DNA of 64,000 nt, taken from a virus. Lineage: Duplodnaviria; Caudoviricetes. The stretch's first letter is position 1. Each line of letters begins with the position of its first letter. Under the pieces are notes generated by a model. The model saw only the letters and a list, made by a program, of their open reading frames with translations. It had not been told where the DNA came from and searched no databases. A program made the position numbers and the translations under genes. The stretch spans positions 3,993 through 67,992 of the IMG/VR virus record IMGVR_UViG_3300009982_000006; one strand, given 5' to 3'. Shown here piece after piece: positions 3,947 to 7,414 of this stretch.

Positions 3947-4129
3947 ATGCAAACTCCACACTCAACTCGTAGAATGTCAATACATGCGATCTTTTTAATC
4001 CTAATTGGATTTATTATTATTACAATGGCCTTTTCTTCCTGTAGCCCATATAAAAATGGATGCAAAGAAGTAAGAGGTAAAAACTACAAAGTAGGCTATT
4101 TCATAACTAATAGGCCATATAGATATTAA
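3947..4129 (+). CDS. Small putative lipoprotein
   Basis: Hydrophobic stretch followed by lipobox-like FSS-C. Confidence 0.55.
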   Translation: MQTPHSTRRMSIHAIFLILIGFIIITMAFSSCSPYKNGCKEVRGKNYKVGYFITNRPYRY

Positions 4130-4257
4130 ACTTCTGTCATGGAAGGACGCAAGAGAGCCGGTTAAGTATTTATCCTTTGTAAATCCCGGCTCTTATTTAG
4201 TAACCTTTTTAAAGAGTCTCATAAGCAGTAGTTACTCTCAGCCTGGGAGTAAATTTC

Positions 4258-4286
4258 AGCCCCTTTAGTCTTATCGGGGCTTTTTT
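4258..4286 (+). terminator. Intrinsic terminator directly upstream of the ECF sigma gene
   Basis: AGCCCC-N12-GGGGCT followed by a T run. Confidence 0.75.
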
Positions 4287-4305
4287 ATCCTTAAACCTTG
4301 TTACC

Positions 4306-4797
4306 ATGACTGAGCATGAATTTAATACCATCTTTAATACCTATAGAATGTACATATTTAATTATGTAAATAAGACTATAGGCAGCAGACCTGACGCGGA
4401 AGAAATAACATCTACGGTATTCATCAAAATGTGGAATACACAACCTGTTTTTATAACAGAGGAACAGACGAAAGCATGGTTATTTAAAACCGCAAAAAGA
4501 AAATGCTTTGATCATATCAAAATGCATAAACATAGAATGTTGCGAGAGAAAGTATGGATTGCAGAAGTTCCTGAATGGGAAGAGTTGAACATTATAGAGC
4601 TAGATGCACATACAGCTACCTTACAAAGGATCATTGAGATGATTAAATCATATACAAAACAGGAGCGATTGGTATTTAATCTTCATTTTATAGAAGGGTT
4701 AAAGCCTAGAGAAATATCAAAAATTTTAAAATCTTCCCCTCAAACCATCAGTAATCAATTAACAGCAATTAGAAATAAAATAAAAAAGGGCCAATAA
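4306..4797 (+). CDS. ECF-type sigma-70 factor
   Basis: Region 2 (DAEEITSTVFIKMW...KAWLFKTAKRKCFD) and region 4 HTH (ERLVFNLHFIEGLKPREISKIL...TISNQL). Confidence 0.85.
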   Translation: MTEHEFNTIFNTYRMYIFNYVNKTIGSRPDAEEITSTVFIKMWNTQPVFITEEQTKAWLFKTAKRKCFDHIKMHKHRMLREKVWIAEVPEWEELNIIELDAHTATLQRIIEMIKSYTKQERLVFNLHFIEGLKPREISKILKSSPQTISNQLTAIRNKIKKGQ

Positions 4798-4843: not shown

Positions 4844-5368
4844 TTACGCTAATGATTTTATCAAAATAGCCGCCCCGCATTGTTGATCAATATAATTTGG
4901 ATCAAACTTACCATCTGCAACATACTTTCCCTTTTGATATTTGTCTGACCAACTCCATAAATATGGGCTTGGTAAGCCTTTCTTTTTATACCCCAGCCCG
5001 TTATATGCTTCTACTAAATTGAGTGTATTTTCTATTGACCAATCTTTTACCTTATCCCATCCTTTTAGCTTTATTGCATCTATGGCGCTTTCTACCCAGG
5101 TAAATGGAGGCTGTCCTTTTATTGGCCTACCAGCAGGGACATGTTTAGTACGTGCGGTTAATGGGTCACCATTATGTAAATGGCGGGAGAAATTTAAAGA
5201 CGATTCGCGGTAGTGAATAGCCCCTAGCACATACCATGGAACATTAGTTATTTGGCTTACTTCATCATACTTGGATTTATTCTTTAGTATCCTAGCTGTC
5301 AATAAATCTAGTTGAGGTTTCTTTTTGGGCGCGACTATCATTCCATCAAAAGATTCTTTATAACTCAT
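4844..5368 (-). CDS. Endolysin, lysozyme-fold (COG5526-like)
   Basis: VPWYVLGAIHYRES with candidate catalytic Glu, EAYNGLGY, PSPYLWS, GKYVADGKFD; last gene of the membrane cassette. Confidence 0.8.
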   Translation of the reverse strand: MSYKESFDGMIVAPKKKPQLDLLTARILKNKSKYDEVSQITNVPWYVLGAIHYRESSLNFSRHLHNGDPLTARTKHVPAGRPIKGQPPFTWVESAIDAIKLKGWDKVKDWSIENTLNLVEAYNGLGYKKKGLPSPYLWSWSDKYQKGKYVADGKFDPNYIDQQCGAAILIKSLA

Positions 5369-6057: not shown

Positions 6058-6822
6058 TTATTTACGTTTTAATGATAAAGGAAAATTAATTGAGGTTTCC
6101 ACTGTAGTTTTATTGGGGCCATAGTACCCTTTAACTCCAAATAAAACATTTCTTGTAGTTTGATATAATAGCCCGGCTCCTGCTGCAACCGGCCACGGCG
6201 ACCACAAAACGCCCCATGATAAGTATAAACGGCCTTTGGGCCTTATATTACTAATTGAACCTTTTTGAATAAGAGTGAGGCTATCTACTTTGGAACGGAA
6301 ATCATCTCGTTCTCGTTCGACCAGGAATACTCTGTTTGAAATGAGGGACGTTTCTCTTTTAAATCTTACGGCCCAATCTGCAACTTCTTGTTTGTATTTT
6401 AAAGTGAGCTTATCTGTTACATCTAATCTTTCAAAGCACTCTTTACAATCATCTACAAACTCTTTTGGTGCCAGCACAGTTGCGGTATCTGTGTATTTTT
6501 GATCTCTATATTTTTTGAGTAGTTTTTTGTTTTCACTTAACGCGCTATTTAAGTCGTCTTCCGCCCGCTCTTTTTGATTTTCTGCCAATAGCCTTTGGCC
6601 TCTTTCAAACTCCAAAGAGTCTTCATATGATTTCTTAGATTCTGTCCAGCCATCTATGGCGCGTTTAGAAATAACAGAAAAGCTATCTGTTAACTCAATT
6701 AGTGTTTCGATCTGTTGCTGGTTATTCTTTACTTTTTTACATCCTCTATAAAGAGCAATTATAAGTATGCCAATAGCTACAAGCATGGCAAAAATCACCC
6801 AATTGGAAATTTTTATATTCAC
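6058..6822 (-). CDS. Membrane-anchored coiled-coil protein, Rz/i-spanin-like
   Basis: N-terminal TM, long coiled coil, C-terminal beta-rich segment; located in the lysis region. Confidence 0.55.
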   Translation of the reverse strand: MNIKISNWVIFAMLVAIGILIIALYRGCKKVKNNQQQIETLIELTDSFSVISKRAIDGWTESKKSYEDSLEFERGQRLLAENQKERAEDDLNSALSENKKLLKKYRDQKYTDTATVLAPKEFVDDCKECFERLDVTDKLTLKYKQEVADWAVRFKRETSLISNRVFLVERERDDFRSKVDSLTLIQKGSISNIRPKGRLYLSWGVLWSPWPVAAGAGLLYQTTRNVLFGVKGYYGPNKTTVETSINFPLSLKRK

Positions 6823-6841
6823 GCTACAAACATTTTTAAAA

Positions 6842-6940
6842 TGAAATGCCCCCTGTCCTAAAGTGTCTCACCAGATCCTCTACGGAATCTACACTCTAAA
6901 ACAGGAGGCGCTTCAAATGAAATATCTTTTATCTGGTGAG
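6842..6940 (-). ncRNA. Candidate structured (pseudoknotted) cis RNA element
   Basis: On the - strand, 6909-6891 pairs with 6866-6848 over 19 bp (15 WC, 4 G-U), and 6940-6931 pairs perfectly with 6876-6867 over 10 bp; the stems interleave. Confidence 0.65.
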
Positions 6941-6964
6941 TTTGTCAAAGTTGGATATTTTTTA

Positions 6965-7414
6965 TTACCCATCCAAATCTTTCTTTACTTTATAGAAGCC
7001 AACGAAAGCCGCCGATATAGAACACAATCCTAGCACTACTATATACATCCAATAAGATGTTTTATAGTTATACATGAATGAAACAGTATCAAAAACATGA
7101 TACATAAAATAAATATACCATATCACATACAAACGCATGCTATATCGTTGCCATTCAAGATATGTAGCATAATTTCGTGAATGCGCCTGACATGCACCTG
7201 CAAATAAAATAGCCATCAGTACAAGTGAATCTTCAAGCATCTTCGAATACCATAAAATACTTAACTGTTCTGCCTTAAAGGAAGTCTGCAAAAACCAATC
7301 ATCTACATAATAATCTTTAGACTCCGGCCATGCCCAATAAATAAATGTATGTGATTCTGTTAGCAGATGACCCACTACCAACAGAATCACTATACTTGCG
7401 TACCGGCTTTTCAT
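6965..7414 (-). CDS. Multi-pass membrane protein (149 aa)
   Basis: About four TM helices; ATGA overlap with the upstream small gene. Confidence 0.65.
   Translation of the reverse strand: MKSRYASIVILLVVGHLLTESHTFIYWAWPESKDYYVDDWFLQTSFKAEQLSILWYSKMLEDSLVLMAILFAGACQAHSRNYATYLEWQRYSMRLYVIWYIYFMYHVFDTVSFMYNYKTSYWMYIVVLGLCSISAAFVGFYKVKKDLDG

Follow-up and report, generated by a model that had tools for sequence, protein, structure and literature searches.

The window analysed here, 64,000 nucleotides (nt) in length, comes from an IMG/VR virus record whose full length is 67,992 bases (IMGVR_UViG_3300009982_000006, Caudoviricetes; positions 3,993 to 67,992). On its - strand, a short intergenic region separates a gene for a membrane protein of 149 amino acids (aa) from a gene for a spanin-like protein of 254 aa, and an earlier note on this DNA had described in it an RNA element of four strands in the order a, b, a′, b′, in which a pairs with a′ and b with b′. 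The element was followed up on the - strand of the window and in related phage loci. It is a conserved, uncatalogued RNA family of about 100 nt, found in uncultured soil and rhizosphere phages of Bacteroidota. With moderate confidence, we favour the reading that it is a conserved promoter-proximal terminator leader which gates the genes of the lysis region. The layout of the locus is given in Table 1.

Table 1. Features of the element and of its flanks in the window, in the direction of the predicted transcript. ORF, open reading frame; bp, base pairs.
Feature	Position	Strand	Remarks
Upstream gene, 149 aa, multi-pass membrane protein	6965-7414	-	Stop codon 23 nt before the predicted +1
Putative -33 element TTTG (TTG 6976-6974)	6977-6974	-	Within the final codons of the upstream ORF; 20-nt spacer to the -7 box
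Putative -7 box CAACTTTG	6953-6946	-	Agrees with the Bacteroidetes sigma-A consensus TAnnTTTG at 7/8 positions
Predicted transcription start (+1, A)	6941	-	Predicted from the position of the box
Strand a	6940-6931	-	CUCACCAGAU; 5′-terminal strand of helix a:a′
L1 linker	6930-6910	-	Between a and b; 6915-6911 lengthens helix b by 5 bp
Strand b	6909-6891	-	5′ strand of the terminator helix
P3 hairpin	6890-6873	-	AGAU-U-CC / loop GUAGA / GGAUCU; apical extension of the terminator hairpin
Strand a′	6876-6867	-	AUCUGGUGAG; partner of a or, via its 5′ four nt, of the P3 5′ strand
Strand b′	6866-6848	-	3′ strand of the terminator helix; abuts a′
U-rich tract	6846-6838	-	UUUCAUUUU; 6846-6842 also able to pair with 6915-6911
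Mini-ORF AUG UUU GUA GCG UGA	6833-6819	-	Overlaps the GUG at 6822-6820; not conserved, probably fortuitous
Downstream gene, 254 aa, GUG start	6058-6822	-	'Spanin-like' unproven

In the window, helix a:a′ consists of 10 perfect pairs, and b:b′ of 19 bp, with 15 Watson-Crick and four G-U pairs. A C6910/A6847 mismatch is followed by five further pairs (6915-6911 with 6846-6842), which brings the helix to 25 bp including the extension, and a′ and b′ follow each other without a gap. The earlier note had described both stems with their coordinates, the extension after one mismatch and the adjacency of a′ and b′, all of which were recovered on reading the - strand. The nested minimum free energy fold consists of b:b′ prolonged by the apical helix P3 (6890-6884 with 6878-6873), whose 3′ strand occupies the first four nt of a′ (6876-6873). 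Strands a and a′ share no nucleotide with b or b′, and the only overlap in the element is that of a′ with the P3 3′ strand (4-5 nt). A 150-nt region around the element folds at -44.3 kcal/mol (z = -4.3), a value that none of 200 shuffles reached, and a 10-bp match to the hairpin loop arose in 0.5% of shuffles of the 5′ region. When both strands of the full 64 kb were scanned with a descriptor, no comparable second element was found, and shuffled windows gave 0-1 weak matches. Given the fold z-score, the shuffles and the descriptor scan, the stems are not the product of chance.

The 254-aa protein has 94 homologues with 35-74% identity, nearly all of which come from metagenomes of soil or the rhizosphere; many of them are encoded on contigs of 65-78 kb. 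In about 30 loci, the region ahead of the homologous gene was examined, and the a-b-a′-b′ layout was found in 16 (the window and 15 metagenomic phage loci), which represent about 12 distinct sequence types. The sequences of these 16 loci are largely different while the layout is kept: a, L1, b, the P3 hairpin, a′, 0-3 nt, b′, a U-rich tract and, 13-30 nt further on, the start codon. The gap of 0-3 nt between a′ and b′ in the relatives allows for helices truncated by mismatches. Among the relatives, L1 measures 1-27 nt and is not conserved in sequence, and b:b′ comprises 15-23 bp. The covariance model R1 found exactly one copy per locus; it matched nothing else in the window and nothing in the loci that carry a helix-turn-helix gene instead of the element. 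One more distant relative has a plain hairpin terminator at the place of the element, and in a close relative (P0005 contig) an HNH_3 endonuclease gene is inserted in this intergenic region.

Profile scans with the 254-aa family yielded four loci in IMG/VR, two of which carry the element, and 15 loci in the JGI metagenomes. The same profile matched none of the 185,579 species genomes in GTDB, and no prophage copy was found there; it may therefore be that this phage group is strictly lytic or that its hosts have not been sequenced. A blastn search with 4 kb of the locus gave no match among GenBank phages, and neither single-protein scans of IMG/VR with both flanking proteins nor an exact search for stem b in IMG/VR returned anything. 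Two degenerate pattern scans of IMG/VR, whose 80 loci were filtered by the covariance model, likewise led to no new locus beyond the known contig. The Rfam search proposed by the earlier note gave no match in the window at E <= 10 and none in eight relatives at E <= 1. The element is thus a candidate for a new Rfam family, so far confined to uncultured soil phages.

The earlier note had argued for selection on the RNA of the coding strand and had suggested a check for covariation in both stems among homologues. Such covariation was found. Stem a was assessed on a structure-naive MAFFT alignment (A2), in which 95.6% of the cells are paired and compensatory changes occur in 7/10 pairs; 0/500 shuffles reached this score, and partners slid along the alignment paired in only 22-41% of cells. 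The model R1, built on the MAFFT alignment, had left stem b of the divergent types out of register (A4), and stem b and P3 were assessed on an alignment in which every sequence was cut down to the loop and the inner 15 bp of b (A5). Two rows of A5 (L023, L025) are still one or two columns out of register, and the counts for b are therefore conservative. On A5, the inner 15 bp of b are 90% paired with compensatory changes in 12 of the 15 pairs, and P3 is 93% paired with such changes in five of its seven pairs. In alignment-free tests, for which either the loop or the 5′ region of every sequence was shuffled, a:a′ helices of the observed 10-18 bp had p <= 0.02 in 15 of the 16 loci; in L028, a:a′ comprises only 6 bp. 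At column 95 of A2, in strand a′, a C/U change is matched by G/A changes in both partners. Because a and the P3 5′ strand each follow this change from C to U, both alternatives for a′ appear to be selected, as judged from the alignment. In the fixed inner 15 bp of b, 188 cells are Watson-Crick, 31 G-U, two A-C and four other (p = 1e-7 for G-U versus A-C), and in 16/16 loci the sense strand folds more stably than the antisense strand. Since G-U pairs far outnumber A-C, the element is an RNA of the coding strand and not a DNA repeat, as the earlier note had held.

Directly upstream of strand a lies a putative promoter which, by its -7 and -33 motifs, would be of the Bacteroidetes sigma-A type. 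The -7 consensus of this type is TAnnTTTG (PMC9723704, PMC7366714), and the box spans -12 to -5 (PMC9723704); the predicted +1 is therefore position 6941. Strand a begins at the predicted +1 in 15/16 loci and at +2 in the window, and the predicted start would thus place a at the 5′ end of the transcript. The exact TAnnTTTG motif occurs at the same place in 15/15 related loci, and in 12 of the 16 loci, including the window with its 20-nt spacer, TTG precedes the -7 box by 19-20 nt. In the window as a whole, TAnnTTTG was found 66 times against 82 expected. The motif is not over-represented, and its fixed position is therefore not an effect of composition. The promoter overlaps the 3′ end of the 149-aa upstream gene. 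The adjacent sigma factor gene belongs to a Bacteroidetes extracytoplasmic function (ECF) subfamily, and the phage genes, inspected by eye, have A-rich leaders without Shine-Dalgarno sequences. A Bacteroidota host fits the promoter type, the ECF subfamily and these leaders.

At the other end of the element, b′ is followed in the window by AUUUCAUUUU, with seven U in 10 positions, and the extended stem by UUUU. In most relatives, runs of U6-U8 follow b′, and only in L025 is the tract weak. The statement in the earlier note that there is no U-tract, and hence no simple terminator, was therefore not upheld. A simple terminator scanner missed b:b′ solely because of its loop limit of 3-8 nt. Because a stable, covarying, G+C-containing hairpin is joined to a U-rich tract, b:b′ with this tract has the anatomy of an intrinsic terminator, at which termination is predicted.

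The interleaved stems meet a geometric constraint. The third loop, from a′ to b′, measures 0-3 nt and has a helix a of 10-17 bp to cross, whereas the middle loop measures 7-27 nt. By our own geometric reasoning, 0-3 nt are too few to span such a helix, which makes the classical coaxial H-type fold impossible; the helices would stand side by side or alternate. Thus, of the features of an H-type pseudoknot, two interleaved covarying helices are present, and loop lengths suitable for a coaxial fold are absent. A test of the two-helix bundle, in which the length of L1 was compared with the difference in helix height, gave r = -0.15 with automatically extended helices and lent no support. Nascent RNA that starts at +1 and ends with a′ folds as the a:a′ hairpin, with -16 to -27 kcal/mol, and no fold better than -5 to -12 kcal/mol is available to it once a is blocked. 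For the full RNA, the mean energies are -34.5 kcal/mol for the nested terminator state, -21.9 kcal/mol for a:a′ alone and -38.7 kcal/mol for the pseudoknot, the last being a crude value with a generic penalty of 9.6 kcal/mol and without sterics. Therefore, a:a′ can form first, b:b′ is finally favoured, and the nested and pseudoknotted end states are close. Of the 'pseudoknot or two-state switch' proposed in the earlier note, the interleaved stems and the competition between a and P3 for a′ are supported by covariation, whereas the classical coaxial fold is excluded by the loop of 0-3 nt.

We infer from these results a promoter-proximal terminator leader, in which the start, termination and the roles of a:a′ and P3 would be as follows. 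The non-coding transcription unit, of about 100 nt, is predicted to run from 6941 to about 6838 on the - strand. A host-type sigma-A promoter would yield an RNA that starts with strand a and encounters a terminator between the promoter and the genes ahead. Expression of these genes, both from their own promoter and by read-through from the upstream structural genes, would be set by the frequency with which RNA polymerase passes. Helix a:a′ would close co-transcriptionally before b′ is made and trap b in its loop against the emerging b′. The trapped b could hinder or delay the winding of the terminator helix of 17-25 bp, and a:a′ would be an antiterminator that shares no nucleotide with the terminator stem. 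P3, by occupying the 5′ half of a′, would favour the plain terminator hairpin. Termination would release compact RNAs, about 100 nt long and base-paired at either end, comparable to the short pR′ transcript of lambdoid phages.

A more specific and rather doubtful version of this mechanism is that a:a′ acts as a topological antiterminator: closing b in a loop before b′ is made would permit a promoter-specific bypass without a protein and without shared nucleotides. The terminator helix could not wind while the 3′ end is held by RNA polymerase, and the full pseudoknot would form only by threading of the free, short 5′ end. Transcripts from the own promoter would thereby be treated differently from read-through transcripts of the upstream operon. 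We know of no earlier description of such an interleaved antitermination geometry.

Several observations weigh against the terminator leader. Since a:a′ and the strands b and b′ have no nucleotide in common, antitermination lacks its classical basis here, and thermodynamics favours the terminator helix whichever state is considered. Neither an antiterminator protein nor any other trigger was identified; no candidate for a Q-like gene or site was identified either, although a Q module was not tested as such, and the neighbouring proteins were without family in library scans. The start site, the 3′ end and the efficiency of termination are predictions from sequence, and in the window itself the -7 box is imperfect, with CA where the consensus has TA, and the U-tract is not continuous. 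Because the 16 sequences are relatives of one another, the shuffle counts overstate their independence. A lysis cassette downstream is plausible and unproven; in some relatives, a gene for a beta-helix or tail-like protein of about 950-1000 aa follows the spanin-like gene instead. In relatives with 35-44% identity, a small helix-turn-helix gene with its own promoter box takes the place of the RNA.

The main rival explanation assumes a constitutive terminator. In this account, a:a′ holds the 5′ end in a helix that stacks on the terminator hairpin and produces either a nuclease-resistant RNA of about 100 nt or, where polymerase reads through, a lysis mRNA protected at its 5′ end; the short RNA might be a trans-acting small RNA (sRNA) or a decoy, and P3 would merely be a folding intermediate. 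We consider this possible, if on the whole unlikely. Emory, Bouvet and Belasco are said to have reported in 1992 that 5′-terminal stem-loops stabilise bacterial mRNAs, and the location of a at the predicted +1 or +2 in all loci corresponds to the known requirement for such stabilisation. Both ends of the terminated RNA would also be base-paired. Precedents exist in the sRNA RydC, in which disruption of the pseudoknot cuts the half-life to about 2 min (PMC4337610), in the short pR′ transcript of Stx phages, which acts as the sRNA StxS (PMC7547250), and in the canonical sRNAs of Bacteroides, which have their own start site and an intrinsic terminator (PMC7366714). However, the single-stranded L1 and the P3 loop are conserved neither in sequence nor in length, no conserved seed was seen, and no complementary site for L1 as an antisense RNA was found in the window at <=3 mismatches. 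A simple 5′ hairpin would suffice for protection, which leaves the location of a′ inside the terminator loop, 0-3 nt from b′, unexplained, and the covariation of P3 suggests that the alternative state matters. The two explanations make opposite predictions for termination in compensatory mutants.

A helix of 17-25 bp with an asymmetric internal loop on its 3′ side, lying between genes and offering the approximately two turns of double-stranded RNA (dsRNA) sought in a substrate, is what would be expected if RNase III or another dsRNA nuclease split the structural-gene mRNA from the lysis mRNA. The substrate would comprise b:b′, the one-sided internal loop and P3. The early mRNAs of phage T7 are processed by RNase III, and its R1.1-type sites resemble such an irregular hairpin. 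This view leaves the covariation of a:a′, the promoter that makes a 5′-terminal and the conserved U-tract all unexplained, and we regard it as very unlikely; RNase III processing and a terminator leader may nevertheless coexist. The suggestion in the earlier note of a riboswitch or ribozyme fared worse. The pseudoknotted topology, the terminator after it and the presence in some relatives of CUGAUGAG, the core box of the hammerhead, could speak for a metabolite riboswitch or a self-cleaving ribozyme, but no unpaired position is conserved, and the invariant columns map to the helices and the promoter box. In addition, L1 can be as short as 1 nt or as long as 27 nt, and Rfam gave no match. The hammerhead has the invariant catalytic core CUGAUGA ... 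GAAA. A hammerhead was rejected here, as the box varies (CUGGUGAG, CUGAUCAG, UUGAUUAAG) and pairs with a, and neither GAAA nor a stem II follows it; a sensing or catalytic RNA of this kind is barely credible.

Covariation is blind to whether strands pair in cis or in trans, and a:a′ could in principle join the 5′ tail of one RNA to the internal loop of another and form dimers or chains. The pRNA of phi29 forms rings through loop-loop pairing. A cis fold is sterically demanding here (0-3 nt between a′ and b′, L1 down to 1-5 nt), strand a is palindromic in several relatives (GCUGAUCAGC), and IMG/VR records inverted terminal repeats for the contig of the window. By our own estimate, however, a side-by-side two-helix fold in cis is geometrically possible for every sequence, and intermolecular pairing lacks a functional context, as the element precedes the lysis region and lies away from the packaging and replication modules. 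We therefore judge it highly improbable. The least probable explanation is a DNA-level signal, such as inverted repeats bound by a protein, a cruciform or the target of a homing endonuclease, or a chance repeat. The HNH endonuclease gene inserted in this intergenic region of one relative would suit a homing target, but in DNA, or on the opposite strand, the 31 G-U pairs (against two A-C) would become mismatches, and the helix sequences are wholly replaced between relatives while the pairing is kept; chance is excluded by the fold, shuffle and descriptor tests.

The genes that the proposed terminator leader would control follow on the - strand. The element is succeeded by the gene for the spanin-like protein, two genes for small membrane proteins and a gene for a 174-aa protein (4844-5368, -). 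Its position before spanin-like and lysozyme-like genes, described in the earlier note, proved to be conserved. The 254-aa protein has an N-terminal hydrophobic segment, a coiled-coil-like middle and a conserved C-terminal hydrophobic or beta region, and it matched no family in Pfam, PHROGs or NCBIfam; the label 'spanin' is a guess from its position and shape. In the alignment of this family (A1), G27-C28 after the N-terminal hydrophobic segment and the pair C126/C129 are invariant, and a C-terminal block (GRLYLSWGVLW..PWP..AGAGLMYQ...NFPLS) is highly conserved; the residues before C28 form no canonical lipobox. The GUG start at 6822 is backed by homologues with AUG at the aligned position. 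The stored gene call P0001 has 246 aa and starts eight codons after this GUG (6796-6822, -). The 174-aa protein matched nothing in Pfam, PHROGs, NCBIfam or sequences of the PDB. Its Atlas model (predicted local distance difference test, pLDDT, 0.95) corresponds to the catalytic domain that occurs in phage proteins in fusion with PG_binding_1. The nearest named clusters are GH23 or goose-type lysozyme at 0.85, and the protein is probably an endolysin of an unnamed family.

The mini-ORF described in the earlier note is present in the window and overlaps the GUG start as reported. An in-frame AUG mini-ORF near the start was found only in the window, L025 and L027, and the proposed coupling to the downstream gene was rejected, as this ORF is absent from 13/16 loci. 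Further variation was seen among the relatives. The gene for the beta-helix protein of about 950-1000 aa occurs on the P0005 contig and at L028:2734-4729 and L030:2780-4777. The RNA is absent from the 200 nt before the homologous gene in L005, L010, L011, L012, L014, L015, L018 and L021. The helix-turn-helix gene of these eight loci encodes a protein of about 56-60 aa that appears excisionase- or AlpA-like by eye (...SR.TLYRMIKDGKI...), and a TAnnTTTG box lies only a few nt before its start. Elsewhere in the window, positions 4130-4305 (+) contain three simple hairpins, the last with AGCCCC/GGGGCU and U6, ending 20 nt before the ECF sigma factor gene (4306-4797). This is another leader with a terminator in the same phage; its fold z-score is only -1.98, and no -7 box was seen. 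It was rejected as a second copy of the element, as its architecture is different.

Almost nothing is known about lysis timing and the control of late transcription in Bacteroidota phages, for which the element provides a compact and testable cis-element at exactly the site that pR′-tR′ occupies in lambdoid phages. If a:a′ modulates termination, it would represent natural antitermination without sequence overlap and could be useful for the design of RNA devices in Bacteroidetes. If it is a stability fold instead, the element would be a clear example of a terminator hairpin to which the 5′ end is locked.

The proposed leader shares features with several known systems. Like attenuators (trp, pyr, T-box and riboswitch platforms), it offers alternative leader helices before a terminator, since a′ may pair with a or with P3. 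Unlike in attenuators, the terminator strands have no nucleotide in common with a:a′, which surrounds b and borders directly on b′. Nor is there a leader peptide, a conserved core for the binding of a ligand or tRNA, or a match in Rfam, and a search of the 16 loci for a sensing device in the leader found neither a conserved ORF nor a conserved motif of unpaired nucleotides. Termination can be suppressed, with no overlap in sequence, by a stable structure set closely against the terminator (Bushhouse, Fu and Lucks 2026, bioRxiv 10.64898/2026.06.17.733018). This 'tug-of-war' antitermination resembles the element in its very short spacer to the terminator, which measures 0-3 nt between a′ and b′ here. 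However, the structure in that system is stabilised by a ligand and lies wholly upstream of the terminator hairpin, whereas here the terminator loop contains one strand of the structure, the structure in turn contains b, and no ligand is indicated.

To our knowledge, Bacteroidetes are generally held to lack canonical Hfq. The enterobacterial Hfq-dependent sRNA RydC has a similarly interleaved two-helix fold and a 3′ U-tail (PMC4337610), and its pseudoknot is needed for stability in vivo (PMC4337610). In contrast to the element, in which the 5′ end is paired and no seed is conserved, the 5′ end of RydC is a single-stranded conserved seed, and the two sequences are unrelated.

The pR′-tR′ layout of phage lambda serves as a comparison for the arrangement as a whole. 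No similarity in sequence or structure was found between the element and the lambdoid late leader, and the lambda leader has no pairing between its 5′ end and the terminator loop. The cassette here lies at the end of the late region and not at its head, the promoter follows the Bacteroidota grammar, and no Q-like antiterminator gene or binding site was identified. In Stx phages, the late promoter is always active, and its transcript is terminated just downstream, ahead of the lysis genes (PMC7547250). The likeness to such lambdoid leaders (lambda 6S RNA; StxS, PMC7547250) lies in the host-type promoter, the intrinsic terminator about 100-200 nt on and the lysis genes next to it. In both cases, the short terminated RNA would be a by-product that is possibly functional itself.

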